A stretch of DNA of 64,000 nucleotides from Kiritimatiellia bacterium (GCA_045599445.1 JAZRWB010000011.1:3090-67089); one strand, 5' to 3'. Shown: positions 24,239 through 64,000, counted from the stretch's first letter. Made by a program: numbers and translations. The notes: a model not told the origin generated them from the sequence alone.

Positions 24239-24456
24239 ACAGTCTCCTTCGTCGAATGTTGTAGATTGTATCAAATAATATTATTCTTATAAATAGAAAG
24301 AATTATTATTATTAGGTTTGTTGATAATTAAAGTAACTTGATTTAAGTCCTCTACTTCAAGGGTATTTAAGAGTTTTGATTGTTGGTAAATTATATTCAT
24401 TTATTTGATTGAAGTTAGTAGCAAGGTACTTGTAATCACTTGTAGAGAGATTATCA
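24239..24456. other. Very AT-rich dnaA-dnaN intergenic region, candidate DNA-unwinding element / origin component
   Basis: 218 bp of AT-rich sequence with runs such as AATAATATTATTCTTATAAATAGAAAGAATTATTATTATT inside an otherwise roughly 60 % GC block. One TGTTGATAA (1 mismatch to TGTGGATAA) at 24319-24327. Confidence 0.4.
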
Positions 24457-30306: not shown

Positions 30307-30326
30307 TCGTCGAAATTATTCGACGA
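30307..30326 (+). terminator. Weak hairpin after the kinase-like gene
   Basis: TCGTCGAA-atta-TTCGACGA 8-bp stem, but only TT follows. It abuts the -35 of the next promoter. Confidence 0.3.
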
Positions 30327-30372
30327 TTGACCCGACTCCCACTATGTGGTAAAATACAAACATAGTGGGAGT
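30327..30372 (+). promoter_or_regulatory. Near-consensus promoter TTGACC-N17-(TGg)TAAAAT embraced by a perfect 13-bp palindromic operator
   Basis: -35 at 30327-30332, -10 at 30350-30355. Operator arms ACTCCCACTATGT (30335-30347) and ACATAGTGGGAGT (30360-30372). The right arm covers the expected TSS and the GGGAG Shine-Dalgarno. Confidence 0.6.
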
Positions 30373-30381
30373 AAAGGTACT

Positions 30382-33300
30382 ATGAAAATGCTCAAATGTC
30401 TACATTTGTTCGCTGGGATGTTTTTCGCCAGCACCGCGCTTGCGGCGGAGACTGTTACTGTCACCGATGCGAAGTGGGGTAATATGGGCGCTGCACCTTC
30501 TACAGCAGGTGTGACTACAGGGAGTATTGGTAACGGAAATTACTCAAGTTTCTCGTTTAACTTCGCAGCTGCCGACAATATGTCGCCAAAGGAAATTGGT
30601 AATAGAGGCACCGTTAAGATTAAGAAGCTTACCCTTGTGAGTCGCAATGATGCCAATGCTAATGGGATGAATAAGATTCGGCTTACCCAAGGCGATAAGA
30701 CGGTCGATGGTACGGTTGAGATTAAGACTGATAATATCGTCATCTACGGCAGTCAGTTTCCAGGGGTTTCAGGTGACAAATATACGCAAAGCAAGGGCTA
30801 TTATGTGGCGACGTTTGCGTCGGATGTTGAGTTTGATGTCTCGCAGAACATTACCTTCCAGCTTCTTAATAGCGAGGGTCAAGTTACCTCGTATGGCCTT
30901 CGTATGATTCAGCCAGCCAACTCGGTTCTTACGACGAGTAATGGTTGGTCTCCGGCGATTGAGATTGTTGGCGACTACACGTATGCGCCATCACCAACTT
31001 CAGAAGTCGTTGCGCTCTTTAACTTCAAGAGTAACGACGGCACTGATGCCGCTGGGTGGACGAACCACACTCAGCCAGATGGCGGCATGATTCCGAAGAG
31101 TGGGACGCTCTCTATGAATGGAGTCACATTTGCTACTAATAGCAAAGGCAACTTTTTTCCTGATAATACGTCCGTAGTTAATACCGATTATCCGTCTGCC
31201 ATTATTGCCGACGTGAAAGAGACGTTGGGTTTGTCGGATAGCATTGATTTTGACGCCAATGTATACAAGACCGGCTTGATGAATGGCGGACAATCAGGCC
31301 ATACGGCTACGATTTCCGGCCTTACGACTGGAAGCGAGTATGTAGTTTACTTCGGCTTTGGTCGCCTCAAAACGGATGACAATAATCAAGTCGGCGGCTT
31401 TACGCTCAATGACTGCGGTAGTTTTGCGAGCCTTGAATATGTGGTGACGGTTGCTGGGCAGAACACGACGGTTTCGCAAGGGTGGACCTCGTTTACCAAG
31501 GGAACTGCCATTAGGCCGGGAAGCAATGGCTTGATGATGGTCAAACTCGCTGGTGTAACGCCTACAAATAATGGCACTATTGTGTTCACGATGTCGGGCG
31601 CCAGAGGCCAAATCAACTTCCTCGCAGTGAAGGAGAAGGAGCTTCCTCCGCCAGGTCCGGCGGTTTCGGCTACGATTTCGGCAGACACTACTTGGTCGGC
31701 GCTTTGGGAGGGCGGCACGGCTCCAGTCGAAAATACGCCAGTTGAACTTACTTTTAATGGCTCTTATACCTTGAGTCTTAATGCGGATGCGGTTGGCAAG
31801 AGTTTCAAGATTTTAGGCACGAGCTCGGCTGATCAGACCATTAAGATTGATGGTTCGGCGGCGAATGTTGCGGCTTTTGTCGGCAAGGTAACGCTCGATA
31901 GCACTTTCATTGGTAAGGTTGATTACGAGTTCGATGCGACGACCGCAAGCTTCACGGCTGATGATGCGCTCAAGAACGCGATTAAGTCGGCGAGCACCAA
32001 TACGAAGTTTGTCTTCAAGGGTGCAGATAATTATGGCGCGACAGTGGATTTCGATAGCGCGAATAAGAACGGCACTATATCGTCTCATATCGTTCTTAAG
32101 GGCGGGTCGCACTTAATCAAGAATGGCAATGCTGGGACATTTGCGAATTCTACCACTTGTACGGCGGAAAATCCCGCAATCTTCATTACGAATGGTGCGA
32201 CGCTTAATTTTGAAGGTCATGACTTGAACGGATGGACTGGTTCTATTATTACTGGATTTGCTTTCCGGGTTGACGATGGAGCGACGTTGAATCTTAAGAA
32301 CTTCGGCGGTACATTCTTCTTCCGTCAGCAGATGTGCATCGTTCCTGGCGGTACGGTCAACGTGCCTAATGGTTATAATTTCGAGTTGCATGGTGGCAAC
32401 GGCACTCCGGAAATCGTTGTTCCCGACGCAGCCGTCGGCAACACGAAAGTTGCCACCATCTCTGGCGGCATTCGTTTCCGCGATGGCGAAAATGGCGCGA
32501 GCGTTGCTGCCTCGGTCGGTGCGAACGCGATATTGAAGATTGGCCCTGTTGCTCTCTATGCGGCAGGTAATGACGCATCGATTAAGAAGACAGGCGAAGG
32601 TATATTGGAGATTGCTTCAGGCACGATGGCTCCGAAGGTTATCATGGGCAGTGGTGTTCTCAAGCTGGATGATGAGGCAACATTAAGTCAGGTGATTCTT
32701 GATTCCGCTACCGAAGTAGATGTGGTTTCTGGCAGCGCAACACTCAATGCGATTTCGGGCGACTTTGCTATTACCAAGACCGGCGCGGGCACGCTCAATC
32801 TCCCTGCGGCCTATACGCAGACGATTACACTTACGGGCGGCCAGATTAATCGCACTGCTACGAATACGGTTGTGATTAACGGCGATATCGATCTTGGCAC
32901 GACGGAGATGCCGCTTAGCTGGGCGATTGATGCGACTTCTACGGGTTCGATTAAGCTTCCTACTGGCTTCCCGTTCGGACAAATCGCCAAGGCGAGCGCG
33001 CTTCCCGAGGGCTTGGCATTCAAGGATAGCACGGGCGCAACGATTAGCGCTGACAAGCTGGAAATTGATGGCGGCTACATCGTTCTCAAGAAGTCGGAGA
33101 TTACCACGCCTTACAATGTTGCGGAACCGACGATTATTGAGGATGATTTGGTCTTTGGTGAAGGCGGCTCAATCAACATTACGCATAACGGTGCGATGTT
33201 GATGGCGACGGGAACGATTACTCTTCCGGAGAGTAGCTTGCCGGTTACTTTCATCTGCGAAGACGAGTATGTCGTGGGTACGAAGATTTCGGTCGTGGCT

Positions 33301-36300
33301 GCAAAAGCCTTCAAGGTCGGCGATATCGACGCGACGTTTGAGAACTTCACTTGCAAGCTTACCGGTAAGTTGCCGAAGGGCATGGAAGGTGAGTTCCAGT
33401 TGGTTGAGGAAGAGGGGATGAAGGCGATTGTGTTCGCAATTACCAAGTCCACCTACTATACTGCGGAGGTAGCGGAGATTCTCGAGAAGAATACGCTTCA
33501 GGTTCGCTTCGACGCATCTTGCGGGGTGGTCGTTGACGATAACGGGAAAGTGACGGAGTGGAAGGATATCAGCGGCAACGGCAACAACGCCACGCCCGTC
33601 CACTACAAGCATATTACGGATACTCCGACTTTATTTTCCTCGGACGATGATTTGCGCGAGTATGTTGATTTTGGAGAACGCGGTTCACACCAAGATCTTC
33701 GCATTGGCAGCACGGTCAATGGCAAGACGATCTTCCTTGTGATTGACATTCAAGAGGACAAGGATGCGTTCATCCTTGGTTGGGGTAACGATAGCGATAG
33801 CTATGGTGGAAACTACGACTTCCACCGCAATGTACTTTACTACTTTAACGGCGACTCGCAGGTCTTCGCAGTTCGCGACAACAAGATTGACAAGGGTAAT
33901 GGACGGAGCGAGCTTTTGAAGTCTGGGTTTCGCGTGCTTTCGCTACGCACTGATGGCAATGGACGCTTCAATAGCTTCTCCTCCGACCGCAATGGATGTT
34001 CCGACGGCGAAAACCGCACTGGTGGTCGTAAGCTCTGTGAAGTCATCTCCTTCAGCGAAAAGCTCTCCGACGGACAAACGGAGACGATTGAGGATTATCT
34101 TCTCGCGAAGTGGGGATTGAATTATCGCAACGAGGCAAATATCGTGGGAGAAATCGCTTGGAGCGAAATTCAGTGGAAAGGCGGTAGGTATTACGCTGAC
34201 GTCGAAACCACGCTCACCGTTACCGGCGACACCGTATTGACGTTTGATACGCCGATTGGGAATCCCGATATCGAATTTATTCAGGAGTCTCCGGACTATC
34301 AGCTTGAATTCGTCATTGAAAAGGAAAGTGGCTGCATGCCGGACATGATGATTGGGGCCGGAGAGCAGTTGACATTGCGCGGAGGAACGTCGGAGGATCC
34401 ATTCGTCTACACCGGATGGGTAAGTGTCGAAGAAGGTGGAACATTGGTAATCGACGGCGGGAGTGTTGAATGCGAAGGATTTTGGGGAGATGGAATTGTG
34501 GATGTTCAACGCGGCGAGTTCCGCTTGGGATCGATGCGTGGAGTGAAACTTAATTTTGCAGAAAATACGGCTTTGTTGGTGGATGCGAATGCGGCGGACG
34601 GTGGCGAGGTAACATTGATGTTCGAGAGCGGTTCTGCTTCGCCAACGGTGAGGTTTGTGGACGCCGAGACTCGTCACGCAGTAATCGTTCCAGTTGCGGG
34701 CGGGGTGAAAATAACCTACGACCCAGAGGTGAGTGGAAAGGCATGCCTTTACGATTGGACGTTCGACAACGGTGTTGACAAGGGCGATAATCGTCTTGCC
34801 AGCGTCGGCCGGAATACGAGTGCGCTCAGTTGGGATACTGACTACAGTAAATCGAACGGATTCGTCACAGACGAGGCATTTACTTACGGAACTGCGCTCA
34901 ATACCAAATCGACTCCGTATTCTGACTTTACCGTCGATTATCCGACCGAATGGACTTGCATGGTCGCCGGCGTTTTGCCGAATGTTACCAATGGTGCGCT
35001 CATCACCTTCGGAACTCAAGGCGATGGGCTTATTGGACTTATCGCCGGTAGTACGGAGAATGAAGTAAAAATCGTTCGCACTACCGGTAATGCACAGTAT
35101 GTAGCCTTGGCGACGATGACGGTTCCCAATGCGCGCACGACTTCGCATTGCTACGCATTTGTTAAAACCGAGGAGAAGATTGTTGTTTATCTTGATGGTG
35201 TGAAGTGGAATGAAACTGAGGTGCGGGGAGCGAACTTTGGCGCGAGATTGCAGATAGGCTCGGTGCATGGTGGTGTCGGTTCTACAGGTATCACTAAAGT
35301 AGATAACGCCACCAATGCGACTGCCATTCAGGCGGTTAGAATTTTCGAAGGCGTGTTGGGTCCGAAATCGCTGCGAAAGTTGGCGGAGGAGTTCCCCTAT
35401 CTTTCCGAAAACGGAACTTTCACTCGCACTTTCTCCTCTGCGAGCGAAAATTGGGTGTCGGACGAATCGTGGGCCAAGGTCGGTTCTGGCGATAAATTCT
35501 CCGAACCCGATGCTGGATCGGAGTTGAAAATAACCGCCTCCGCCAGTACGACGGTGAAGATGAATTTTGACGGGGCTAATGCGGTGTACGAAAATGTCAG
35601 CATCAACGGCAGCGGGTCGCTGACGTTCGATGTTGGCGAAGAGGGTTATTTTGCGGTCAATGCCGGCAAGACCGATGTTAACGTGCCGATTACCTTGAAG
35701 TACGGGTCGCTGACAATCGCGGTCGGCCCGACTACAATCGGCAGTTCCGGTTCGATAACTTTCGATTATTCTGCCTATCCGGTCGACACCATCCATAGTG
35801 AAGGGTTTATCCAATTGACCGGTCAGATAGACGAGCAATCGCCGGACAAGATCAGGTTGGTAAAACCCACTGCGCTTTTGGAGCGGCGAATGGATTTGGT
35901 TTATCGCGACGAGGTGTATGGAATCGAATACGGGTTTGCTCGCGATCCGATTGATCTCTACTTTAAGAATCCGACCGAAATGCTTGCGTTGACGAATGAA
36001 ACGGAATTGGTGGATATTGACGGTAACGCGAAGTCGCGGATGATGAAGGACGATGTGTTGGTGGTTGCAAATAACGCCACTTTCACCATCGCCACCACCG
36101 CGCTTGATGTTCAGCTTTCGACGCTTAAAATCACCAATGCCACGGTTACCGTAAATATTCCTGCGGCCAATCTTAACGGGCTTGCCGAAATCATTGTTGA
36201 AGACGGAGGAACGCTGAAGTTTGATTCTGCCGCCGCCGCCGCTTACACTGGCGCGATTATTGTTAACGAGGGAGGTGTTTTCGACGTTAACGGCATCCCC

Positions 36301-38040
36301 GACTTGTTGATGGAGGTAACGCTCAACGGCGGTACGATGACCAACAGCGGGGCGGATGTTGGCGTGGGCAAAAAGCAATTTCCGACGATGAATTTTACCG
36401 ACGACTCAGTAATTGACGTGGTGCATGACTTCGGTTCGATTGCGCAAGGCTACGGAGCGCACACCGTGAATCTTGATGGCAATGTCGTCGAGAAGCGCGG
36501 CGCAGGAAATTACTATCTCGTGAATGCCACGATAGGAGGGGGCGGCGAATTCAAGGTTACCGAGGGAACGCTCGCCATTTCCTCTGGACTTACCATCCCT
36601 GCAGATACCGAATTCAAGTTGACCGTCGATAGCGCGGCTACCATTTCCTTCGCCAATACGGTTACCAAAAGCGGTGTATTCAATCTTGAAGTCGGCGGCT
36701 CGCTGTCGGCGCCGATTACCTTGGCAATCGACGAGTTGACGATTAATCAGGGCGCGGTTTTCGCCATAACCTCCTCTTCCGCCATTACTGCGGTCAGTGC
36801 CGTGCAAAACGGTTCGTTTACCGTAGATCTTTCGCAATTGGAACTTGACGAAACGCGCAAGCGACTACTGGCCGCGCCGGGCTTGGATATCGCGCATATC
36901 GATTTTACAGTTAGCGAGGCGGTCGAGAAGCGGTTGTATCGGTTAGTGTATATCGACGAGGTACTTTACGTGGAGCCAAACAATTTGACGATTGCGATTC
37001 CAAGCGTGGACAATGCTGATGTTTCGGTTTTAGTTGACGGCGAACCGGTCGAGGTCGTTGACAATTCGATTACGATTATTCGCGGGTCGGGTGTGGTCGT
37101 AACCTACGTCGCCAATCTAGGTTGGCTTTTCAACGACGCAACCGATCACAAATGTGTGCAACGGCAGGTTGTGTTGGACGACGTTCAGGAAGCGCCGAAT
37201 CCGTCCATTGACGAACGGCTTAGGCCGTATATTCCGTTGGTCGAGGCGAAAGTTAGTATTGGCGACGTCTACTATTTGGATTTCTGCGATGCGCTCGCGG
37301 AAGTGGCCGCCAACGAGGAGATTCGTCTTTGGGAAGCGGTTGTGTTGGGCGACGAGTATAATGTTTCCTGCGACATGGCGATAAATCTCAACGGCTTTGA
37401 AATGAGTGCGGAGGAGGCGTTGTCATTCATCATTGCTGGCGGAAATTCACTTTATCTTTATGATGGGTACGAGTTTGCCAAGCTTTTGGGCGGGGAGTTA
37501 AATAATATTCGCTTCAATCTTTCCGAGGGCACGATCTACTCGTATCTGAATCTCGATAGTCATGTCGATTCTGATCGGTATGTTCGGATATACAGTTCCA
37601 AGGTCGGCTATACGTATGTTACGGCCGAGAGCGTTCCGGAGTTGGTTTCGAAGTTCGTGCCCGGCGAAACGGAAACCGTATACTTGCCCTGCGAAAGCGA
37701 AGCTACCCTGATACCTCTTGTTGAAAAGGCCGAAAGCTTCGGCTATGCGCTTGAACCAGTATCAGCTATGAGTACTGAATATAAAGTTATTATTTCGCCC
37801 GACGAGGCGGTGAATGGCTCTAAGATCGAGAGCTTTGAGATCGCGGGCGGCAAGGCGACGATTACGATTCCCGCGAAGTCCAATCTGTACTATGGGCTTG
37901 AGTATGCGAACAATCCCGCCTTCAGCGGTTCGCAGGTGAAGTGGGCGAAGCAGGGGGCGACGACGCTTTCCGCCGAAGCCGAAGGAGCGAATATGTTTTA
38001 TCGTGTCGTTATCACCGATAAAGACCCGAATATAAAATAG
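30382..38040 (+). CDS. Giant secreted surface protein (about 2552 aa): beta-strand-repeat/beta-helix-like regions plus at least two LamG (concanavalin-like) domains
   Basis: Start MKMLKCLHLFAGMFFASTALA (signal peptide) with GGGAG Shine-Dalgarno. The ORF-track GTG at 30346 lies inside the promoter. LamG-type segments: ...VTEWKDISGNGNNATPV...CEVISFSEKLSDGQTETIEDYLLAKWGL and ...WTFDNGVDKGDNRL...RIFEGVLGPKSLRKL. Also ITKTGAGTLNL-type repeats. Confidence 0.8.
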   Translation: MKMLKCLHLFAGMFFASTALAAETVTVTDAKWGNMGAAPSTAGVTTGSIGNGNYSSFSFNFAAADNMSPKEIGNRGTVKIKKLTLVSRNDANANGMNKIRLTQGDKTVDGTVEIKTDNIVIYGSQFPGVSGDKYTQSKGYYVATFASDVEFDVSQNITFQLLNSEGQVTSYGLRMIQPANSVLTTSNGWSPAIEIVGDYTYAPSPTSEVVALFNFKSNDGTDAAGWTNHTQPDGGMIPKSGTLSMNGVTFATNSKGNFFPDNTSVVNTDYPSAIIADVKETLGLSDSIDFDANVYKTGLMNGGQSGHTATISGLTTGSEYVVYFGFGRLKTDDNNQVGGFTLNDCGSFASLEYVVTVAGQNTTVSQGWTSFTKGTAIRPGSNGLMMVKLAGVTPTNNGTIVFTMSGARGQINFLAVKEKELPPPGPAVSATISADTTWSALWEGGTAPVENTPVELTFNGSYTLSLNADAVGKSFKILGTSSADQTIKIDGSAANVAAFVGKVTLDSTFIGKVDYEFDATTASFTADDALKNAIKSASTNTKFVFKGADNYGATVDFDSANKNGTISSHIVLKGGSHLIKNGNAGTFANSTTCTAENPAIFITNGATLNFEGHDLNGWTGSIITGFAFRVDDGATLNLKNFGGTFFFRQQMCIVPGGTVNVPNGYNFELHGGNGTPEIVVPDAAVGNTKVATISGGIRFRDGENGASVAASVGANAILKIGPVALYAAGNDASIKKTGEGILEIASGTMAPKVIMGSGVLKLDDEATLSQVILDSATEVDVVSGSATLNAISGDFAITKTGAGTLNLPAAYTQTITLTGGQINRTATNTVVINGDIDLGTTEMPLSWAIDATSTGSIKLPTGFPFGQIAKASALPEGLAFKDSTGATISADKLEIDGGYIVLKKSEITTPYNVAEPTIIEDDLVFGEGGSINITHNGAMLMATGTITLPESSLPVTFICEDEYVVGTKISVVAAKAFKVGDIDATFENFTCKLTGKLPKGMEGEFQLVEEEGMKAIVFAITKSTYYTAEVAEILEKNTLQVRFDASCGVVVDDNGKVTEWKDISGNGNNATPVHYKHITDTPTLFSSDDDLREYVDFGERGSHQDLRIGSTVNGKTIFLVIDIQEDKDAFILGWGNDSDSYGGNYDFHRNVLYYFNGDSQVFAVRDNKIDKGNGRSELLKSGFRVLSLRTDGNGRFNSFSSDRNGCSDGENRTGGRKLCEVISFSEKLSDGQTETIEDYLLAKWGLNYRNEANIVGEIAWSEIQWKGGRYYADVETTLTVTGDTVLTFDTPIGNPDIEFIQESPDYQLEFVIEKESGCMPDMMIGAGEQLTLRGGTSEDPFVYTGWVSVEEGGTLVIDGGSVECEGFWGDGIVDVQRGEFRLGSMRGVKLNFAENTALLVDANAADGGEVTLMFESGSASPTVRFVDAETRHAVIVPVAGGVKITYDPEVSGKACLYDWTFDNGVDKGDNRLASVGRNTSALSWDTDYSKSNGFVTDEAFTYGTALNTKSTPYSDFTVDYPTEWTCMVAGVLPNVTNGALITFGTQGDGLIGLIAGSTENEVKIVRTTGNAQYVALATMTVPNARTTSHCYAFVKTEEKIVVYLDGVKWNETEVRGANFGARLQIGSVHGGVGSTGITKVDNATNATAIQAVRIFEGVLGPKSLRKLAEEFPYLSENGTFTRTFSSASENWVSDESWAKVGSGDKFSEPDAGSELKITASASTTVKMNFDGANAVYENVSINGSGSLTFDVGEEGYFAVNAGKTDVNVPITLKYGSLTIAVGPTTIGSSGSITFDYSAYPVDTIHSEGFIQLTGQIDEQSPDKIRLVKPTALLERRMDLVYRDEVYGIEYGFARDPIDLYFKNPTEMLALTNETELVDIDGNAKSRMMKDDVLVVANNATFTIATTALDVQLSTLKITNATVTVNIPAANLNGLAEIIVEDGGTLKFDSAAAAAYTGAIIVNEGGVFDVNGIPDLLMEVTLNGGTMTNSGADVGVGKKQFPTMNFTDDSVIDVVHDFGSIAQGYGAHTVNLDGNVVEKRGAGNYYLVNATIGGGGEFKVTEGTLAISSGLTIPADTEFKLTVDSAATISFANTVTKSGVFNLEVGGSLSAPITLAIDELTINQGAVFAITSSSAITAVSAVQNGSFTVDLSQLELDETRKRLLAAPGLDIAHIDFTVSEAVEKRLYRLVYIDEVLYVEPNNLTIAIPSVDNADVSVLVDGEPVEVVDNSITIIRGSGVVVTYVANLGWLFNDATDHKCVQRQVVLDDVQEAPNPSIDERLRPYIPLVEAKVSIGDVYYLDFCDALAEVAANEEIRLWEAVVLGDEYNVSCDMAINLNGFEMSAEEALSFIIAGGNSLYLYDGYEFAKLLGGELNNIRFNLSEGTIYSYLNLDSHVDSDRYVRIYSSKVGYTYVTAESVPELVSKFVPGETETVYLPCESEATLIPLVEKAESFGYALEPVSAMSTEYKVIISPDEAVNGSKIESFEIAGGKATITIPAKSNLYYGLEYANNPAFSGSQVKWAKQGATTLSAEAEGANMFYRVVITDKDPNIK

Positions 38041-39590
38041 TGAAGTTCAAGGTAGCGATCTTCGCGTTTCTCCTTTCGCTGTCGCTTTTCGCGACGGAGA
38101 AGCCGAACGTAATCTTCGTTCTTTGCGACGATCTCGGATATGGCGACGTCGGGTTCGCGTGGCAGGTGAAGCGTCCTACCGGGGCGATTAGAATCGAGAC
38201 TCCGAATCTCGACCGTCTCGCGTCCGAAGGCACGATCCTTACCGACCACTACTGCGCCTCGCCGGTTTGCGCGCCTTCGCGCGCCTCGATTATGACCGGC
38301 AAGTTGCAGCTCGGTCTCGCCAAAGCCGGCGATGAAGGTTGCTCGCTTGTAGATAATAACTTCGACTTCCCGATTTCCGAAACGCGGACATTGGGAACGG
38401 TGATGAAGAAGGCGGGCTACGAGACCTATGCGATCGGCAAGTGGGGCATTGGCGGAGGCGGTGAATCGGGGAAGGATCGCATAGCGCATCCGCTCGCGCG
38501 CGGCTTCGACCACTACTACGGCTTTTTCGACCATCTCGCTGGCCACACCTATTATCACTACGACGGCATCTTGAGCGGTAAGGTGTATATGGGCGTTTAC
38601 GAGTCCGGCGCGCGACCCAAGGAATTTGCGGACGCGGCATACGATACGAAGTTGAAGGCGAACGGCGGCGACGAGAACTTGAAGGCGTATTGGAATGCGA
38701 CCAAGACGGCCGAAGGTCGCTATTCGACCGATGTCTTCATCGCGCGAGCCAAGAAGTCCATCGAAGAGCAGCTCGCCGATTCGGAGCGTAAGCGCAATCC
38801 GTTTTTCATTTATCTAGCGATTAATACGATTCACGGTTCCGGGCGCGACAATGCGACGCTTAAGAACACCCATTCTTTGCACGTGCCAGGCGGCGAGTAT
38901 GTGCGTTCCAACAATGCGGACGGGTCGGTTAAGTGGCCGCTAGAGGTGGAGCCGATTGAAAAGCGCAATACGTGGATCGATCCGCGTTATCGGGGCAAGG
39001 GGCTTTGCGAAAACGCCCAGCGTTACGCGACGGCGATTTCGCGGCTGGACGACGCGATGGGCGATCTCGTGGACTTCCTGAAGCGCAAGGGAATCTACAA
39101 GAATACGATTATCATCTTCACGAGCGACAACGGGCCGGCCGCCGAATACGGCGCTGATCCCCGTTTCTTCGAGTCGTACGGTCCCTTCGACGGAATGAAG
39201 CGCGATGTTTACGAGGGCGGGATGAGGATGCCGACATTCGTTGCCTGGCCCGGCCGAAAGCACAAGCCCACGGAAAGCGCGCCGTCCATTTCCGCGGATT
39301 GGCTCGCCGCCTTGGAGGGGCTTACGAAGGCGAAGAAGCCGACGCTCCCGATACCGGTTTCCAAACGCATCGAGGCGAACTATCGGCATGGTGGAGGAGG
39401 AAGTCCGTATGCGAACGAGTTTCGTGCGCGCAAGGGCGCGGAGAATTGCGGGGGCGTGCAATGGATGTCGCGCGAGGGCGATATCGTGAGTTTGGTCGCG
39501 GGTAGTATTCCTAAGGATAATCCGCGTAAGTACAATGTGGTGAAAGATCCACATCAAGATCATCCGCTTAAAGAAGGAGAAATAAAATGA
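38040..39590 (+). CDS. Cys-type (formylglycine) arylsulfatase, secreted
   Basis: 516 aa. Signal peptide MKFKVAIFAFLLSLSLFA. CDDLGYGDVGF; FGly motif CAPSRASIMTGK; FTSDNGP. The GTG start overlaps the upstream TAG by 1 nt. Confidence 0.85.
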   Translation: MKFKVAIFAFLLSLSLFATEKPNVIFVLCDDLGYGDVGFAWQVKRPTGAIRIETPNLDRLASEGTILTDHYCASPVCAPSRASIMTGKLQLGLAKAGDEGCSLVDNNFDFPISETRTLGTVMKKAGYETYAIGKWGIGGGGESGKDRIAHPLARGFDHYYGFFDHLAGHTYYHYDGILSGKVYMGVYESGARPKEFADAAYDTKLKANGGDENLKAYWNATKTAEGRYSTDVFIARAKKSIEEQLADSERKRNPFFIYLAINTIHGSGRDNATLKNTHSLHVPGGEYVRSNNADGSVKWPLEVEPIEKRNTWIDPRYRGKGLCENAQRYATAISRLDDAMGDLVDFLKRKGIYKNTIIIFTSDNGPAAEYGADPRFFESYGPFDGMKRDVYEGGMRMPTFVAWPGRKHKPTESAPSISADWLAALEGLTKAKKPTLPIPVSKRIEANYRHGGGGSPYANEFRARKGAENCGGVQWMSREGDIVSLVAGSIPKDNPRKYNVVKDPHQDHPLKEGEIK

Positions 39591-43531: not shown

Positions 43532-43534
43532 TAA

Positions 43535-46989: not shown

Positions 46990-46993
46990 TAAA

Positions 46994-48550: not shown

Positions 48551-48553
48551 AAT

Positions 48554-53554: not shown

Positions 53555-53557
53555 AGG

Positions 53558-55063: not shown

Positions 55064-57282
55064 TGAAGCGTTTAGTTGTTAGTTGCTGGTTGTTAGTTAT
55101 TGGCGGCTGGGCGATTGAGACTTTTGCCTGCACGGGGTTTTACGTCGGGAAGGCGGTGTCGGCCGACGGGACGACGATGATCGGACGCACGGTTGACGCC
55201 GCGCCGTGGAACGGTCCGATGCGCGAGGCGCGGTTCGAGCGCGGGGAGTGGACGCATGCGGACGGAACTTTGAACAAATACGCCTTCATCTGTGCCTGCA
55301 TGTCGACGAGTCTGAACCGTGGCTTTCGAGGCGGTGGCACGATCAACGAGAAGGGAGTGATGCTGTCGGCAACCGTCACTGCGCGGACGAATGATGAGGC
55401 GACGAATGCGGATCCGTTCGTGTCCATCGAGGAGGGCGGCTACGGCGAAGAGAACCTGCCGGACCTTATGATCGGCAACGCCGCTACCGCCCGCGAGGCC
55501 GTGGAGATGCTGGGGGAGAAGATCAAGGCGAACGGACATTCCGGTCCCGAGATCTACATGGTCGCGGATACGAACGAGGCGTGGTACGTCGAGGTGTACA
55601 CGGGCCACGAGTGGGCGGCCGTGCGGATGCCGGAGGATCAGGTCGCCGTCTTCGGCAACCAGTTCAACATCTGCGAATTCGACACGAACGATACCGAAAA
55701 CGTGATGTACTCGCCAGGGCTCGTCTCTCTCGCCGTTGAAAACGGGTTCGACGTCTGGAAGGACAAGGGAAATGGCATCATCGATCTCTACGAGACCTAT
55801 TCGCCGTCCTTGTGGGACTACGCCAACTACCGCACTTTCTGGGGACACAACGCCTGGGCGCCGATGGCGTACCCGTCGAACTCCTATTTGACCGCGACCC
55901 ACTATGAGCTTTTCTTCACGCCGGAGAAGAAGATCGCGCTTACGGACGTTTTCGAGCTGATGCGGACGCGCTACGAGGGCGTGAACTGTCCCGAGGAGAA
56001 CGAGGACACCACGATTCGCGTAATCGGCACGACGAAGCAGATGAGCTGTCACGTGCTGCAGATGCGGCACGACCTGCCGGAGGTCTACCGTTGCACGCTT
56101 TGGGAATGCCTTGCGCAGGCGGAGCACTCGACGTTTCTTCCGGTCTGCATGGCGATGAAGGAGATTCCGGACGCCTACTCGCGCGACCAGGAACTGCCTC
56201 TCGAATACGACCCCAATCGCGCGGCGGATGCGTTCTTGCGGCTCGACACGCTCGCGGAGCTGAAGCGCTTCATCGTCGATACGTATGGCGTTCGCCGGGA
56301 TGTGCGCGCTTGCTACGGCGCGGGCGTTCGCGCCTTCTGGCACGAGCAGGAAGAGCGGCTCGTCGAGGAGTGGCCGAAAATGTTGGAGAAGTGGATGATC
56401 CGTGGGAAGTCTGGCTGCACCGAAGCGAACGCCTACGTTAACTTCAACCAGGTATGGACGCTTGCAGACGCGAAGCGGCTCCACGACGAGCTCGCCTGGT
56501 ACTGGGCAGAGTTCAACTGCGATCTGAGGGACGGCGGCGGGGCGACGGACGTACCGACCTACGACTTCGCCTCGTCGATGCCGACGAACGCCGAACTGGG
56601 CGCGTCGTGGACGCGGTGGCATCGGGCGGAGTTCGACTCATACATCGAGGAGCTGGCGGGTCCCGTGGCGAAGCGTTCGTCGAAAGTCTCAAAGCTCGTC
56701 GAGGACTCGAAGCAAGTTTTCGACGGCGTGAAGGACGCCGAAACGCTCGCGTCGGCGAAGACGGACATGGCGGAGATCGTCCGCGATATCGCCTTATATT
56801 GCCAAGGTCCACTGGGCAGCGAGAGCAATCCGTGGGAAAGCGGCGAGTCGGTCGTCGTGTGGACGAACGGCACGGGGGTGCTTGTTTTCGAGGGCGAAGG
56901 GCGGACGGACGATTATGCGGAGGCGACACCGTGGGCGGAGGTAATGTCCCAAGTTATGGCGGCTCGGGTCGCCGAAACGGTGACGCTGGGCGCGAACTCA
57001 CTCAAGGGAATTGTTACGACGTCTCCGGTCAACGGGATAGTATTAAACGATCTTTTCGCCGCAGTCGGCGGACAGGATCCGGCGGGCGCAATTTCACCTG
57101 CCGAATTCGAGCGCGTTAAGATCGAGGATGGCAAGGCGCTCCTCGACGTCAGCGTTTACACTGCGGACACTATCGAAAACCCGAACTGGTCGGTTGCGAC
57201 GAATGGCGTTATTACGGTGCCAGCCGAAGGCAAGCAGGGCTTTTTCTATCTTATGTCGAAGCCCGCGTCTTCAAACAAGTAA
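55063..57282 (+). CDS. Secreted C69-family dipeptidase with an extra C-terminal extension of about 240 aa
   Basis: True start MKRLVVSCWLLVIGGWAIETFA|CTGFYVGKAVSADGTTMIGRTVDA (TAATG overlap with the upstream stop). The ORF-track start at 54547 is an out-of-context extension. The C-terminus has a BspA/LRR-like segment and ends ...AEGKQGFFYLMSKPASSNK. Confidence 0.75.
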   Translation: MKRLVVSCWLLVIGGWAIETFACTGFYVGKAVSADGTTMIGRTVDAAPWNGPMREARFERGEWTHADGTLNKYAFICACMSTSLNRGFRGGGTINEKGVMLSATVTARTNDEATNADPFVSIEEGGYGEENLPDLMIGNAATAREAVEMLGEKIKANGHSGPEIYMVADTNEAWYVEVYTGHEWAAVRMPEDQVAVFGNQFNICEFDTNDTENVMYSPGLVSLAVENGFDVWKDKGNGIIDLYETYSPSLWDYANYRTFWGHNAWAPMAYPSNSYLTATHYELFFTPEKKIALTDVFELMRTRYEGVNCPEENEDTTIRVIGTTKQMSCHVLQMRHDLPEVYRCTLWECLAQAEHSTFLPVCMAMKEIPDAYSRDQELPLEYDPNRAADAFLRLDTLAELKRFIVDTYGVRRDVRACYGAGVRAFWHEQEERLVEEWPKMLEKWMIRGKSGCTEANAYVNFNQVWTLADAKRLHDELAWYWAEFNCDLRDGGGATDVPTYDFASSMPTNAELGASWTRWHRAEFDSYIEELAGPVAKRSSKVSKLVEDSKQVFDGVKDAETLASAKTDMAEIVRDIALYCQGPLGSESNPWESGESVVVWTNGTGVLVFEGEGRTDDYAEATPWAEVMSQVMAARVAETVTLGANSLKGIVTTSPVNGIVLNDLFAAVGGQDPAGAISPAEFERVKIEDGKALLDVSVYTADTIENPNWSVATNGVITVPAEGKQGFFYLMSKPASSNK

Positions 57283-57304
57283 AATAAACAAAAAAGGAGT
57301 AATT

Positions 57305-60300
57305 ATGAAAAAGATAATGGTGGCTATTTCGTTACTCGTACTTTCTTTCAGCGCATTCGCTGAAGAAAAGGTTGCGACATACACCTTGCCGGAGATTAAG
57401 GCATTGCTCGCGCCTTCGGCTACTTGGCCGGAGTGGAATTACATCGCCGTTGATGACGGAGAGTACGTTTTGCCTTACGAACCGGAAGGCGCGCCCCTGC
57501 TCCCTTATCGCGTGCTCAAATTTGCAGTGCCCGACGGATATCAAGTAGAAAGCGTCCAGAGCGAGGGCGCGGAATGGACGACGCTGTCGGAGCAAGCGCG
57601 CCTTATTCCCATCCAACCTCCAATCCCCACCTCCGCCACAACCGCTCCGGCATTCGTCGAACTCGATTCCAAGTTCGCCGTCGATGCGCCATATCCCGCT
57701 TCGCCGGTGGAAAAGCTTAAGGCCTATACGCAAGGCGGGATTAACCTACTATCCGTAAAGGTCCTGCCGTTTAGATACAATCCGGTTAGCGGGCTTTTGG
57801 AGCAAGCGAAGAACTTGAAGATCGTCGTTACCTTCTCGCCTCTATCTCAACCTCCCGCCTCGACATCCCCCTCATCTCCCATCTTGCGCGAATGGGCGCG
57901 CAAGGGCGTCGTCAATCCCGAGGATCTTCCGCCCGAGCCGATGAAGTCGATGGCGGTGGATGATACCAAGCCGATTTATCTTATTATCGCGCCACACGAT
58001 CTTTACAACGATTGGGTGTGGTACGCGGACGAACGCGCCAAGAACCATCCCGAGATTAATTTTGACGTTATTGACACGCAAACCATTTACAATGAGTATC
58101 CATATCGGAACGTGCGTCAGCCCACGACTGGTCCGATTACGGACTTGGCCGATACCGAGAGCCGCTATCCTTGCGAATCGATTTACAAGTGGCTCGTTAA
58201 TTATTATTCGTAGCATAAGAGTCTCCGTTATGTCGTTTTGGGCGGCTTGTGGCTCGATGTGACCGACCCAACCATTCGTTGGACGCAAGAAGGCAACGAG
58301 ATCAATATTAATAACGCGATTCCTTCGGTCAAGGGAAATCTTCGCTCGGATTATGTCAATCCGACCGATATGTATTACGCTTGCCTTGAACCGGAATCCG
58401 GCGACACTCCCCACCATTGGGACGAAAACAACAACGGCGTTTACCTTGAATATTCCGGCACGACGGAATGGGAACATTGCAGCGTGACGCCGGTAGTCGC
58501 CGTTTCGCGTATGTCGATGAAGCCGATAATGGTAGACGATCGTATTCTCAATCAGCATCAGTTGATTACGAACTTCCTCCACAAGGTAAACGTCGCCGAG
58601 GCGGATAACTTCCACGGTAATTTCAAAATCGGCCTTACTTCCTCATCGTTGGATTATAGGACGTACAGCCTGGATAACGGGCTCATGCAGCGCAACGAAC
58701 TTTATTACTTCGACCGTGCGCCGAATATGCCCGCGCCCGAACATCCGGATTCGTTTTGCGATGTGGGGCCGATGATTCGTCGCCACGCGAGCGAACTGAT
58801 TGCGACGCGCCGCCCGGTAATCGACGCGATGTCCTTCCACGAGCCGAATACGGTTTCCGAGAATGCGACGAAGAGCGCTTTCGGATCGTTCTTCGGGGCG
58901 CACGATCGCGAGCTCGGTGCGGTCGATGGCCATGGTTGGGCGGGAGGCACGGGGCAGTTCAACGCCAACTTGTTCTCGACCTGTTCGGGTCTTATCAAGA
59001 TTAACGTCGTAGGTATTTCTTGCGAAACGGGATACTTGGATATTTACGGCAATAGGGACGGCAAGAGCGTCGCCAATCTCTGCTTGGGCGAGGCGGGGTG
59101 CGCGAACCCGACGGCAACGGGCGGTGTCTTGGCGTCGCTCAACAATACGCGAGTTGGATGGAATGGCGGGCATACGGGATCGTATCGAGGCCCCGATGGA
59201 CTGTCGGCGAAACTCCATTATTATATGATCAATGGCCTGCTTAACGGCAAGACGGCGGGCGAGGCGTGGCTTAATATGGCGCTATCGTATCTCGGCGGAG
59301 CGGGGAATCACATGAAATCCACGGGCGGTCAGTGCTACACCGAGGAAATGCTTTTCGGCGATCCGCTTATCAAGCTTATGCCGATCGAGAATTATACTTG
59401 GAGCGGAGGGGATGGAGACTGGACGTATAATAACGCCAATGAAGTTACTTTCAATGCGGCTGCGACCGTCAATGTCGCGAAGAAGGACGAGGGAATCCCC
59501 TACGGCGCGATGTCGCTCGCGATTAACCAAAACGCGGGAGACACCTTCAAGCTTACGGGCGACGGCGGAATCAAGGTAATGCGGGGGATAACGGTATCGA
59601 ACGGTAATATTGAAGTCGGTATTTCCGGCGGTATTGGCGGCGTGGGCACTTATTATGAAAATAGCGAAAGCGAGACCGCGAAGCGCGAGAACTACCTTAA
59701 GTTCACCAATGCGGGCGCGGTCACTTTCAACAACACCAATCCCGACGCGTCTTTCTTCGTGAACGGAATCAAGAACGCCTCGGCGATTACTTTCGCGGGC
59801 GCGGGCGTGGTTTTGAATACCGATCAATTCGACAATACGCTGGGGACGAGCGCGCTTACTTTTCACGGGCCGGATAATTTCGATCCGCGCACCGCTCCCG
59901 CGAACGTGATTCGCGCCAATCTCTCCAAGACGAGAGGCGCGATGGCGAAGTTCATGCCGCTTACGCTTACCAATTCGGCGCTTACCTTGGAGACGTTCGA
60001 TACGTTTAACGGATACAACGGCGACACGTTTATGACGCTCAATAACTCGATCCTCACGTATCGGATCAGTCGTTGGCGGGGGCTTACCGATCAGGATTAT
60101 TTAGAAAAAGTGCACGGTACGCTTTATCTTAACAATTCCACCTTGGCTGCGGACTATCCGTGCAGCGTGTACTTAAACGCGCCCACGATTGAAGTTACGG
60201 GCAACTCCTCCATCGAAACGACGAACGGCGGCAAGTTCAAGTTAGAGGGCACTACCACGATCGACCTTAAAAATAGCGAGGCGACGATAACCATTAACGC

Positions 60301-63300
60301 GGATTTCGAGCGTATTAACGACGGAGAAATTGTGATCAAGGGCTCGGGCCGCGTGATTGTTGCGACGGCGAAAAGTCTGATCGGACGAGTTCGTATCGAA
60401 GAGGGCGTAACGCTCGAACTTACCGAGCTTCCGCTTACGGAAGTTCCGGAGCTGGAACTTAAGACCAATACGAAGATTGTCCTTCAGCACACGGAAAGCA
60501 ACTTCTATCAGGTCATCCCGTTGTCGAGCGCGTTGGTGTTTGCGGATAATGCCGATATCAAGGTATATTCCAAGAGCGGAGAGGTCGAGACGTTTATTCC
60601 CGCCGAGCTCACGCAAACGGGCAGCATTTTCGAGTCGGGCACGTTGTTGGAGTGGGCGGAGGCGGAGGGCGTTTGGTCGCAAGATCCGAACGCGAAACCG
60701 TGGATTAAGAATCGTACCCGCACCGCCTTTAGTCCGACGGAACGCGCCTATTTCCCCGATTTGAAGGATTCGTCGGGCGGCGCGATCGCCGAAGCGACGG
60801 TAAACGTCGCCGAGACGATCGAAAGCCCCTTTACGTGCTTTGCCAACAAGAATACCGCCTATACCTTCAATCGTTCGTCGATTGGCACCGCGCAAGACGC
60901 GACCATTACCTTTGACTCGCTGGTGATTGGCGGAAAGACGCGGTTTAACCTTCCGACTTTTTACAATACGCGACTTTACGTCTCCGCAGGCGGATATTTC
61001 GCGGGCGCGGAGGTAACGACGCCGCTAATTGAAGTAGTGAAGGGCGGCGTATTGGAAGCGGGATCGATCGGGACTACCGATACGACCCCGACCGAAGTCA
61101 ATATCGAAAAGGGCGGAACTTTGGTGTTGACGGGCGAAAGCCACTCCATGAATCTTAATCTCGAAGCTGGCGCCAAGTTAAAACCGATGGTGGAAAGTCC
61201 GCTCGTCTGGAGCGAGTTGACGCACATTAACTGGCCGGAAGACAAGGTCATCGTCGATGTGAGCGAGTGGGAGATTACCGACGAGCCCATCGTAATCATC
61301 AGGGGCGTCGGGGCGGACATGGACTGGATTTCACACCTCGAACCATCGGCGAACACGGCTTCGCTTGCGGTTAAAGAGGGCGACGTGTGTCTCGTCAGGT
61401 GCGATACTTGCGCTTCGCCGTTTACGCTTACTTTGAACGCGCAGGTAACCGGTTGGGATACGGATAACTGGTATGCGAACGGAACCAAGTTCGCGAAGAA
61501 GTGGAGCGAGAGCTATCCGAATTGGCTTGCGACGGGCGAGATTACGGTAAACGTAAACAACGCGGAACTTGACTTGGAAGTCGGGGCGCACTTCAATACT
61601 CTTACCTTCGATACCTCGTTGGAAGAGGCGAGCGTTAAGCTGGTTTTGGGCGACGAGGCGGAGCTTACGGCGAGAGAGGTTCATTTCGACGCATTCGCCA
61701 AGGCGGACATCACCAATCTCGAGCTGGGCAGCGGGATTCTTTACGCCGCGCCGGAAACGCGCATTCGCGGAAAGTGGTCGGGAGTGTTGGGAGCTACGAC
61801 CAACAATCGGATTTACGTTTACAATCCGGAAGAGCCGTTTACGTTTGTCGATGGCTTCCAGGGGACGATTTTCGTCGGAGTGGAGGATAAGACGAAGACC
61901 GAGCGGCAGAAGATCCTGAGACTTCCCGAGGGCGAGTCGTGGCCGATTTTGGGGGTGGATATAGTGCCAATCGATCCCGATACCGACGAAGTGGTTGACG
62001 ATTGCTATATCAGCTTCGAGGACGAGTGGGTTTATCTCGTGCCGCCGCCGCCGACCGCGCATGCGCCGGCCGGAGAGTCGGATTGGTCAAAGCTTACTTG
62101 GTGTGCGTATGACGGAAGCCCATCGACGATTTCCGATTGGAACAATATTTATAGCGCGAAGATCATTTCCGATAGCGACGAGGCGGTGGTCGTTATGGAT
62201 CGGGCCCCGACCAAGCTATTGATGGTTGGCGAGGGTCGTAAGCTTACCTTGAAGGCGAAGGACGGCTCGGCGACTACGATGCCGCGCGAATTGGAAGTCG
62301 ATGGTGAAGTTACGGTTCAAGGCGCAATTTTGCCGGAGCTTGACTATATTCAAGGCACGGGCAAATTGATCTTGGATACGGGGAAGGTTACGGAGCTTAT
62401 AATCGTCGGCAATGCGTTCCCGCTCGATCCCGATACGCAAGTCGAGATCAAGGCGGGTTCGACGTTATCCTTGGCGCATATCGTTGACTTTATAGGTTCG
62501 GCGGATCTCAGCAAGGTTACGGGCGATGGCGCGTTGGAGATTAAGGACATTTCGGGTAGCGTGTGCTGTTTCGCCTTGCCCGAACCGAGCAAGATGTTCA
62601 GCACCAGTCTTTCCTTTGTGCACAATACGATTCTTACGCTTCAGAGCGCCTACGATAGTACGCCGGTGAATGTCGGAAACCTTTCCGGATCCGGCACCTT
62701 TGATTTTGACGACAGAAGCTGGACTACGCGGTGTTTGCGGACGACCCAAACGAAAGTGACGGAATGGTCCGGAGCCATACCGCAGTGGTCTGGAGCAAAG
62801 AGCTATGATGCGGCTGCGGATTTTAAGCTTATCGTTGCCGGGGTTGACTTGGCGTCGCTTGACCATCGCTTAATTTATTCGAGTATTGCCGGCGATGATG
62901 GAAATTCAAATCGTGGCAACGATCACGACCTTGAAATTGAAAGTACGGGATGCTTGGAGCTTAACGGTTATTGGAACGGAAATATTATCAATAACGGCAT
63001 TCTGGTTTTGGGCCGGCATAAGCTAATCAAGGATAAGACGATTTTCCAGGGCTCGGGCAGAATCGGCATAGTCGGCGACAAGTTGGATCTTCTTCAGTAT
63101 CCGACATTTGCAACTAAATATCCGCTCGCCTCGGGGTCGTACGGCGAAATCGATTTTGCGGTAAATGAGTTTGATGCGGACCAGGAAATTATGAGCGTCG
63201 AGAATAATTTCACGCTTCCGACCAATAGATCGATCATTCTCGTCGCCGAAAACGGCGGCGAGCGCAAGTGGCAACCGGTTACGAGCGATAATATTCAAAA

Positions 63301-64000
63301 CGGAAAGCTCGTTTGGCTTAAGGATGCGATCCAAGAGTCGAGCGAGATAATCTTCGAGCTCGCGTCCGGCGACGATAACGACTTCAACACGCTTATCGGC
63401 GATCAATTCCTGGGAGGAGCGCCTAAGCTTACGATTAACGGCAATGCGGACGGAACTTCCTATCTCGATGCGTCAGAGCAGATCGGGCTTTTCAAAGGAA
63501 CGCTGTCGCTTAACAACGCGACGGTCAAGTGCGTCTTTCCGCTCGAATCGACGCTTGCCGCCAATCCCACGGGCAAGCTGGTCTTTGTGGTAGACGAGGC
63601 GCTGAAGGACACCGAGCAGGTGATGATAAAGCTTGCCGATGGCTGGACCTACGATCCTCAGTTGTTTACGGTAGAGGTCGTTGGGTCGGACGGACGGCCT
63701 ACCGACGCATATTGGACTTGGACGACGCAGAATAACGAGCTAAAATACATCATTGTCGATCCTCGGGCCAACAAGTACATGCCCCGCGCCTATAAGTTCG
63801 ACGGCAATCTCTCGAACTGGGGAAATAAAGGGGGAGATCTTGGTAATATTACTTCGGATAACTATGAAGACACGCGAGACGGCAAGGGCGTAAAGCCGGC
63901 TGCGAGAAATTTGTATGGCGGCGGATTCGAAATCGGGACTGACGATTGGACGATAACGTACGTGATGAAGCTCTCGAAGACGCCGAAGTCAATTCACTTC
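57305..64000 (+). pseudogene. Giant C25-propeptide + C25-peptidase + beta-strand-repeat/LamG protein gene interrupted by one in-frame TAG (58211-58213); 3' end beyond the window
   Basis: MKKIMVAISLLVLSFSAFA signal peptide, AGGAG Shine-Dalgarno. Propeptide_C25-like region (...LLPYRVLKFAVPDGYQV...VLPFRYNPVSGLL...). Then KPIYLIIAPHDLY...WLVNYYS-TAG-HKSLRYVVLGG, colinear with the 48554 paralogue. By hand translation the frame stays open from 58214 to 64000 (1929 codons) and contains GHGW / ISCETG / FGDPLIKL. Pseudogene versus sequencing error versus read-through is unresolved. Confidence 0.6.

Follow-up and report, generated by a model that had tools for sequence, protein, structure and literature searches.

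Do ten tightly packed genes encoding a sulfatase, a kinase, peptidases of three families and giant exported proteins specify one dedicated machine, or did they come together piecemeal? The question is raised by a locus of a Kiritimatiellia bacterium (GCA_045599445.1 JAZRWB010000011.1:3090-67089), where positions 30,327 to 64,000 of the 64,000-nucleotide (nt) stretch that was analysed, hereafter the window, carry ten plus-strand genes that we number g1 to g10. A first-pass annotation of this DNA had read them as an operon coupling giant surface proteins to a sulfatase, a kinase and three duplicated protease families, and had proposed that they form a self-processing surface apparatus. Our analysis leads us to favour another reading, namely that the array is probably a co-transcribed, strain-variable accretion of individually acting exported proteins. 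We read it as such because of the gene junctions of its nearest relative, a chimeric subtilase gene found there, the differing genomic contexts of orthologues of its gingipain-family (C25) giant, an uneven G+C content at third codon positions (GC3) along the array, and protein cassettes that recur in different orders.

Organization of the array

Translation and the listing of open reading frames (ORFs) bore out the arrangement described in the first pass, with ten plus-strand genes separated by junctions of -4 to +4 nt and a single one of 22 nt: from g1 to g10, the successive gaps are -1, -4, 3, -4, 4, 3, 3, -1 and 22 nt. The array opens with g1 (30382..38040), encoding an exported giant of 2552 amino acids (aa), and continues with g2 (38040..39590), an S1 sulfatase of the Cys type (formylglycine, C-A-P-S-R) that carries a signal peptide; g3 (39587..43531), a 1314-aa exported giant; g4 (43535..44893), a cytoplasmic HipA/CtkA-like kinase fused to a C-terminal winged helix-turn-helix (wHTH) domain; g5 (44890..46989), an S8 subtilase that has a signal anchor at its N-terminus, a linker rich in Pro and Thr, a pro-region and, towards the C-terminus, a PPC-like domain together with a tail of the type called class B below; g6 (46994..48550), a minimal S8 subtilase with a signal peptide and a class B tail; g7 (48554..53554), a 1666-aa C25 cysteine peptidase giant (His337/Cys367) whose long C-terminal body is uncharacterised and ends in a class B tail; g8 (53558..55063), a C69 dipeptidase of the N-terminal nucleophile (Ntn) type devoid of a C-terminal tag; and g9 (55063..57282), a C69 dipeptidase bearing ~240 additional aa as a tail, with a class A-like element at its C-terminal end. 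The last gene, g10, encodes another C25 giant and is divided by an in-frame TAG (58211..58213) inside the C25 catalytic domain into g10a (57305..58213), which comprises the signal peptide, the C25 propeptide and the first ~80 residues of the catalytic domain up to the TAG, and g10b (58214..64000), which comprises the remainder of the giant (>1929 codons, His/Cys motifs intact) and runs off the window end. Inspection revealed N-terminal signal peptides on all products but g4, that of g5 being a signal anchor, in agreement with the earlier assignment of a signal peptide or membrane anchor to every protein except the kinase.

The packing is real, since the gaps are tiny (eight of the nine junctions are ≤4 nt and four of these overlap), a good promoter match precedes g1, and terminator-like sites are depleted and absent from the junctions. 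The promoter match, on the plus strand at 30327..30355, is sigma-70-like, consisting of TTGACC, a 17-nt spacer and TAAAAT with an extended -10 TG (10/12 matches), and ranks among the two best such matches in the 20 kb scanned, consistent with its earlier description as strong. Terminator-like sites numbered 14 against 22.5 expected from shuffles in one scan and 13 against 23.3 in another; none fell at any gene junction of the array, in line with the remark of the first pass that no internal terminators were visible. Judged from this layout, g1 to g10 are probably a single transcription unit.

At the opposite extreme, the genes could be mere neighbours, read from several transcripts and functionally unrelated, with the apparent operon resulting from dense gene packing on the leading strand close to the replication origin. 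Promoter-like matches are indeed commoner inside the array than expected (29 vs 18.7 and 21 vs 12.9), GC3 is heterogeneous along it, with values of 0.47 (g4), ~0.52-0.57 (g1, g3, g5, g6) and 0.78-0.79 (g8, g9), and blocks of genes come and go between strains. Junctions this short and this often overlapping, however, leave no room for intergenic promoters or terminators, and the scarcity of terminator-like sites likewise counts against this reading. We therefore regard unconnected neighbours as very improbable.

The asymmetry of the protease pairs noted in the first pass is also real, protein identity being 53% for g5/g6, 47% for g8/g9 and, over the whole length, 26% for g7/g10; the best segments of the pairs reach 70-79% nucleotide identity. 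By these measures, the paralogue pairs are old.

Comparison with related loci

The context of g7 orthologues could be read at five places (L006, L007, L008, L009 and L016), and no conserved ten-gene set was found, all five differing from the window. The nearest relative, L007 (GCA_045599105.1), harbors a C25 giant 92% identical to g7. Its genes follow in the order sulfatase (97% identical to g2), 1096-aa sulfatase-LamG_3 fusion, g3 orthologue (68% identity over residues 425-1313), one S8 gene and the C25 giant, after which come opposite-strand genes; no g4, second S8, C69 or second C25 gene is present at this locus. Similarity between L007 and the window stops right after the g7 stop codon ('TAAAGG'), where a GC-rich hairpin follows in L007 and the g8 start in the window. 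When the single S8 gene of L007 (7895-9997) was aligned to positions 44890-48550 of the window, its 5′ end was found to be g5-like (79% nucleotide identity) and its 3′ end g6-like, in an alignment averaging 85.5%. The gene is chimeric, and unequal recombination between tandem paralogues therefore appears to have changed copy number.

The other g7 orthologues reside in yet other surroundings. In L006 (GCA_045627925.1), the C25 giant (72% identical to g7) comes after rubrerythrin and is followed by a Bro-N gene and two more C25 giants, and in L008 (73%) and L009 (42%) it is found among housekeeping genes. L016 is a different array, composed of a PATR ('autotransporter-associated beta-strand repeat') protein, a C25 protein, a LamG_3 giant and a C25 giant. 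Positions 3814-11289 of L016 encode an untagged 1128-aa C25 protein and, 25 nt further on, a 1354-aa LamG_3 protein without a signal peptide and with a class B-like tail; this pair is probably one frameshift-split gene, since it jointly resembles the single C25+LamG_3 giants P0144 and P0145 of the protein database. Two collection scans, which are informative on rarity only, each yielded one locus: a scan of GTDB species representatives with g6 returned a protein of 41% identity with no other array genes around it, and a scan of JGI metagenomes with g8 returned one of 24% identity, the combination not being found again.

These comparisons bear on the proposal of a dedicated self-processing apparatus, degradative or adhesive, in which the paired peptidases would mature or join the giants and the kinase would serve as an integral regulator. 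Several observations fit it: the tight, partly overlapping junctions behind a single promoter, the occurrence of each protease family as a long/short pair, the retention in L007 of a core that comprises a sulfatase, a lectin giant, an S8 peptidase and a C25 giant, and the adjoining C25 and LamG_3 giants of L016. As pure conjecture, a wHTH protein such as g4 could moreover bind the palindrome at the g1 promoter. Yet the composition is not conserved even between loci whose C25 giants are 92% identical, and no S8, C69 or sulfatase gene is linked to the orthologues of 72-73% and 42% identity. A stop codon breaks g10, members of the g4 family are met in unrelated surroundings, and neither the g6 nor the g8 scan gave a second locus with the combination. 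The search for the same linkage elsewhere thus failed, L006, L007, L008 and L009 all lacking the full set, and we consider a dedicated apparatus improbable.

The kinase gene

For g4, described as a HipA-like kinase-wHTH, the match to HipA/CtkA kinases is weak, HipA_C being sub-threshold in Pfam (24.1 bits vs a cutoff of 30.5). In favour of the description, g4 aligns with Helicobacter pylori CtkA (3akj) over the DRHxGN...FDNG catalytic loop (E 6.5e-4) and matches the PADLOC defence candidate PDC-M03A (2.1e-13), and a HTH_24 domain barely reaches the Pfam threshold. The likeness to HipA/CtkA kinases and PDC-M03A resides in the DRHxGN/FDNG motif and in a homologue that adjoins a restriction-modification pair; g4 differs from HipA/CtkA kinases in its sub-threshold HipA_C score, its fused C-terminal winged HTH and the lack of a HipB-like partner gene.

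Homologues of g4 number more than 6000, and those with names are labelled Kiritimatiellae; the database protein P0001 is identical to g4. One that is 63% identical occurs in L001-L004 (7887-11398), directly after a RE_XamI/DNA-methyltransferase pair inside an rnf operon (RnfA/B ... RnfC/D). L001-L004 are metagenome contigs, one of them from a Hadza sample, and on them the g4 homologue and the restriction enzyme/methyltransferase pair look like one inserted cassette. Another homologue stands alone, flanked by a pseudopilin gene on one side and a sigma-54 activator/secretin cluster on the other. In L007, the g3 orthologue and the S8 gene are separated by a 3-nt junction with no g4 between them, and relative to that locus g4 is an insertion. 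On these sequence contexts, g4 is best explained as an inserted defence- or toxin-like gene, and not as part of a surface apparatus.

The C25 giants

Peptidase_C25 was matched in Pfam by g7 (E 1.4e-18, 67.7 bits vs a cutoff of 23) and by g10b (29.5 bits vs the same cutoff), the g10a fragment scoring just 17.9 bits. The C25 propeptide was found in g10a (PF08126, E 6.9e-06, 25.7 bits vs a cutoff of 22) and was not detected by Pfam in g7. The catalytic motifs read SHGW...IPCDTG in g7 and GHGW...ISCETG in g10, and residues H337, G338 and C367 of g7 are invariant across a 14-sequence family alignment, the His/Cys dyad being assigned by position and spacing and not by alignment to a solved gingipain. 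The g7 family is small, with 17 matches in an index of 5.8 billion proteins, and a profile made from the 14 sequences matched no chain in the PDB.

The first pass had taken g10 for a single ORF of more than 2230 codons. This does not hold, since the TAG at 58211-58213 splits the frame into a 302-aa front part and a remainder of >1929 codons that is without a signal peptide. Around the stop, the sequence reads ...NYYS-stop-HKSLRYVVLGG..., aligned to ...QYYKSYPNLKYVVLGG in g7. Alternative decoding of the TAG was rejected, as g1 terminates with the same codon. Given the in-frame TAG, the use of TAG as a stop by g1 and the existence in L006 of an uninterrupted g10 homologue of identical architecture (2177 aa), g10 is either a pseudogene or an assembly error; we take it for a probable pseudogene in this strain.

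The array proteins resemble the gingipains of Porphyromonas (RgpA/RgpB/Kgp), which are type IX secretion system (T9SS) cargo, in the C25 domain scoring above threshold in g7 and g10, the invariant His-Gly...Cys dyad with its ~30-residue spacing, the C25 propeptide of g10 and the very long non-catalytic C-terminal extensions. The hydrophobic strand and Lys/Arg end of the g7 type also bear a superficial likeness to the conserved Lys/KLIKK end of T9SS C-terminal domains (PMC11285876). Unlike gingipains, the array proteins are without a detectable T9SS C-terminal domain, g7 is without a propeptide, the g7/g10 extension does not consist of haemagglutinin or cleaved-adhesin domains, the family profile matches no PDB sequence, and the host apparently belongs to the Kiritimatiellae, not the Bacteroidota. 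A literature search returned no paper that connects gingipains or T9SS with Kiritimatiellae.

The giants g1 and g3

Both g1 and g3 had been called LamG giants, a label that could be upheld for g1 and not for g3. No LamG domain was found in either whole protein by Pfam (E≤0.01) or NCBIfam, nor in six excised segments by Pfam at E≤5, and PDB sequence searches with g1, g3 and g7 returned nothing meaningful. Residues 1524-1679 of g1, however, align by BLAST with residues 2158-2310 of P0144 (E 4e-7), a region that is itself a PF13385 Laminin_G_3 domain (4.5e-13). An AlphaFold 2 (AF2) model of g1 residues 1430-1730 had a core predicted local distance difference test (pLDDT) score of 73-90, and the best PDB matches of this core in Foldseek (E ~2e-7) were carbohydrate-binding module (CBM) family 40, AbnA domain 4, the Hc-N domain of clostridial neurotoxin (BoNT) and a trans-sialidase lectin domain, with a probability of 1.00 to CBM40, the AbnA domain and BoNT Hc-N. 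All four are jelly rolls of the concanavalin A (ConA)-like type. Transitive homology and the predicted fold thus support, indirectly, a ConA-like/LamG-type lectin domain at g1 ~1520-1675. For g3, which gave no hidden Markov model match, the LamG label is not established; its orthologue in L007 scores below threshold with PF13385 (24.8 vs 27.6 bits). A second region of g1 (residues 1802-2131) aligns with a part of P0161 that bears PF12951 (PATR), and by the same transitive reasoning g1 ~1800-2130 is a PATR-like beta-repeat region.

The two giants have a cassette in common (aa 418-852 of g1 and aa 419-856 of g3, 33% identity) and share further cassettes, in differing orders, with proteins of widely different lengths; these cassettes were found in only a handful of database proteins. 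One database protein, P0156, is identical to g1. Through their signal peptide, their length of thousands of residues and the lack of a beta-barrel translocator, g1 and g3 resemble the PATR/LamG_3 giants common in bacteria of the Planctomycetota-Verrucomicrobiota-Chlamydiota (PVC) group, as does g1 in its homology to PATR- and LamG_3-bearing regions and its predicted ConA-like fold. They differ from them in that neither domain is Pfam-significant in g1 or g3 and that both proteins are cassette mosaics.

The sulfatase and the S8 and C69 peptidases

The family calls made in the first pass for the sulfatase and the S8, C69 and C25 peptidases were all sustained, the Pfam scores lying above cutoff and the catalytic motifs being intact. 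The sulfatase profile matched g2 with E 1.5e-46 (159.5 bits vs a cutoff of 25), and its formylglycine motif reads C77-A-P-S-R. Peptidase_S8 was found in g5 and g6 (E 3.5e-31 and 4.9e-36; 109 and 125 bits vs a cutoff of 21.8), with the Asp/His/Ser triad preserved in both in the motifs DSGID/DTGID, HGTH and GTSM. Peptidase_C69 was found in g8 and g9 (E 7.4e-46 and 3.5e-55; 157.4 and 188.1 bits vs a cutoff of 23); their scores with the C69 NCBIfam equivalog (200.8 and 213.3) lie under its cutoff of 250. The nucleophile Cys of each C69 protein would directly follow the leader if the cleavage sites, placed by eye, are correct (...MADA/CTGMY in g8 and ...ETFA/CTGFY in g9, the slash marking the site). 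In P0292, a database protein of 1205 aa, homologues of g8 (81% identity) and g9 (86%) are joined head to tail. The C69 pair is therefore present in another relative, as a genuine fusion or as two genes run together through a frameshift at the TAATG junction.

The company of these enzymes suggests another reading, in which the array would be a foraging locus, akin to a polysaccharide utilization locus, for a single substrate, mucin or a sulfated proteoglycan for example: lectins would capture it, the sulfatase desulfate it, S8 and C25 peptidases cut it and C69 dipeptidases finish the peptides. The ConA-like fold of g1 does resemble sialic-acid- and arabinan-binding CBMs, an exported Cys-type sulfatase is part of the array, a sulfatase of L007 is fused to a LamG_3 domain at the same locus, endo- and exo-peptidases occur together, and Kiritimatiellales are known to degrade sulfated glycans (PMC6388578). 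On the other hand, the array is without a glycoside hydrolase, a transporter or a sensor, and its peptidase content differs among strains. Cultured Kiritimatiellales possess hundreds of sulfatases, mostly exported (PMC6388578), and because sulfatases are so abundant in this group, having one as a neighbour is weak evidence of specific coupling. Compared to the sulfatase loci of Kiritimatiellales and other PVC bacteria (PMC6388578), the array is similar in placing an exported Cys-type S1 sulfatase beside carbohydrate-binding-type modules, as also seen in the sulfatase-LamG_3 fusion of L007, and dissimilar in that the partners are peptidases, with no glycoside hydrolases or transporters, and that the composition varies between close strains. 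We thus deem a foraging locus dedicated to one substrate unlikely.

C-terminal elements

The first pass had seen no sorting tail on the array proteins. This was correct insofar as known models are concerned: NCBIfam searches matched no PEP-CTERM, LPXTG or exosortase-type model in the array proteins, and no T9SS C-terminal domain (Por_Secre_tail/TIGR04183) was found with NCBIfam (E≤0.1) or with Pfam, on full proteins or on C-terminal segments. A type IX C-terminal domain was rejected on this basis, the sole Por_Secre_tail trace (13.3 bits, E 0.11) lying in g6, away from the tail. The statement did not hold in another respect, since two C-terminal elements recur.

The first, class A, is a ~70-aa beta-domain with the signature GLxYxL...W...RFYRV and a short P/T/K tail after it. 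Its coding sequence lies on the plus strand at the 3′ ends of g1 (~37813-38037) and g3 (~43304-43528) and, in partial form, of g9 (~57085-57279), whose class A-like end reads ...GFFYLMSKPASSNK. A class A profile matched 168 representative proteins among 1.84 billion; among the best 150 of these 168 matches, the element ends 114 of 143 new proteins, which are typically 1000-4000 aa long and have signal peptides. A minority of class A proteins hold tandem copies, and class A is for that reason also a generic beta-domain.

Class B is an appended tail of ~10-20 aa ending in three or four hydrophobic residues and a K/R at the carboxyl end. In the window, it is encoded on the plus strand by g5 (46969-46986, ...FRIIVR), g6 (48530-48547, ...VKIIVR) and g7 (53531-53551, ...KTKILFK), and such tails are also found in L003, L006, L007, L008, L009 and L016. 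The strict class B pattern was present in 13 of 230 distinct ORFs of at least 250 aa from the window and 16 loci, and all 13 encode exoproteins with signal peptides. The carriers belong to unrelated families (C25, S8, a C10 giant, a sulfatase-LamG fusion and PATR giants); none of the 138 proteins in the cytoplasmic g4 family and none of the housekeeping ORFs has the tail, and class A and class B were never seen on one protein. Contig-specific flavours exist, the C25 and C10 proteins of L009 ending in KRAIKLMVK and KRAIRIMIK, and the tail of the C10 giant lies beyond the last recognised Pfam domain. No membrane-spanning hydrophobic stretch was found in class A or class B tails. An AF2 model of the 160 C-terminal residues of g7, made from a 6-sequence alignment, was unusable (pLDDT 33.6).

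The closest parallel to class B is provided by the KLIKK peptidases of Tannerella forsythia, unrelated exported hydrolases of one genome with a near-identical extreme C-terminus, as are the RIIVR, KIIVR and KILFK endings of the window. In Tannerella, however, the KLIKK ending forms the final strand of a complete T9SS C-terminal domain, ~80 aa long (PMC11285876), and no such domain was detected here. A K or R is the last residue of each of the nine complete ORFs (g1-g9), among them the cytoplasmic g4 as well as g2 and g8, which are untagged. The terminal K/R may reflect A-rich or purine-rich last codons that serve the ribosome-binding site and start of the coupled downstream gene, which confounds the tag hypothesis; the class B tail nonetheless persists where no same-strand gene follows, in L008 and in the C10 giant of L009. 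That class A and class B serve as genuine signals for sorting or anchoring, in a Kiritimatiellae export or surface-display route not described before, is a tentative proposal that we would put on the doubtful side.

The leader region of g1

The DNA ahead of g1 is rich in symmetry. Between the stop of the upstream gene (30287) and the promoter lies an 8-bp perfect hairpin/inverted repeat on the plus strand (TCGTCGAA/TTCGACGA, 30307..30326). It is followed by a perfect 13-bp palindrome (ACTCCCACTATGT / ACATAGTGGGAGT, 30335..30372, +), with arms at 30335-30347 and 30360-30372, for which 100 shuffles gave no match. The -10 hexamer falls within the 12-nt spacer of this palindrome, and its right arm contains the g1 Shine-Dalgarno sequence GGGAG. 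The folded RNA of the leader, the 8-bp hairpin included, has a free energy of -35.7 kcal/mol (z = -6.8). The palindrome half-site CCCACTATG has one further copy in the window (55898) and none in the 16 loci. The leader could be a promoter-overlapping operator, a terminator of the upstream gene, or a hairpin sequestering the Shine-Dalgarno sequence in read-through transcripts.

Genomic setting

Going by the names that homologues carry, and not by a marker gene, the genome is most likely one of the Kiritimatiellae (PVC). Upstream of the array, on the minus strand, are dnaN (23141-24274), dnaA (24457-25878) and mnmG/gidA (25978-27714). The 24-28 kb stretch of the window is AT-rich (GC 0.43-0.47), and the cumulative GC skew over positions 1-64000 has its minimum at ~20-28 kb. 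From the dnaA/dnaN region and the skew minimum it follows that a few kb separate the start of the array, which is on the leading strand, from the probable replication origin. Immediately 5′ of the array, a 466-aa ORF (28887-30287, +) with a GC3 of 0.86 is shadowed by a 449-aa antisense ORF and has no match in Pfam or the PDB. At the left end of the window, PADLOC and Pfam identify a minus-strand defence system of lower GC (0.42-0.48; 1178-7540), consisting of a cytosine methyltransferase (6218-7540), MzaB (4743-6221), the Z1-domain protein MzaC (2111-4756) and MzaD (1178-2110). Rfam and tRNA scans of the whole window were empty.

Discussion

If the array is, as we think probable, an accretion of exoproteins that act on their own, the S8, C69 and C25 pairs would have arisen by tandem duplication followed by divergence, cassette shuffling among the giants (g1, g3 and their relatives) would have built part of the array, and further blocks, g4 on the one hand and g8-g9-g10 on the other, would have been inserted or appended. 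Every product except g4 would leave the cytoplasm by the Sec route via its signal peptide. The giants g1 and g3 would act as glycan-binding or adhesin-like proteins at the surface or in the surroundings of the cell, where the sulfatase, the S8/C25 endopeptidases and the C69 dipeptidases may work side by side on proteinaceous or sulfated glycoconjugate substrates, no enzyme of the array needing the others to function. The HipA/CtkA-like kinase-wHTH gene, g4, would be an unrelated arrival that landed between g3 and g5.

Several considerations weigh against this interpretation. The nearest relative has the sulfatase, a lectin giant, an S8 gene and the C25 giant as a shared core, and together with the recurrence of the g8-g9 pair in P0292 this makes a functional coupling of subsets of the array possible. 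The overlapping start and stop codons would imply translational coupling, which is more typical of stoichiometric partners than of enzymes without a relationship. Sampling is thin, with five informative g7 loci and just one relative closer than 75%, and the word-index protein searches missed relatives that appeared later.

What the locus may mean for the biology of these bacteria can be stated at three levels. Should the class A and class B elements prove to be true C-terminal tags, they would explain how the array proteins leave the cell. As a ten-part ensemble, the array is a strain-specific assembly of members of known families, and listing it as a novel machine would be unwarranted. What it does bring to light is a small family, so far little sampled, of gingipain-like (C25) giant peptidases outside the Bacteroidota, devoid of a type IX sorting domain. 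Finally, it renders the growth and shrinkage of such an array visible at single-junction resolution, through the fusion of paralogues, the appending of a block exactly at a stop codon and the insertion of a defence-like kinase.

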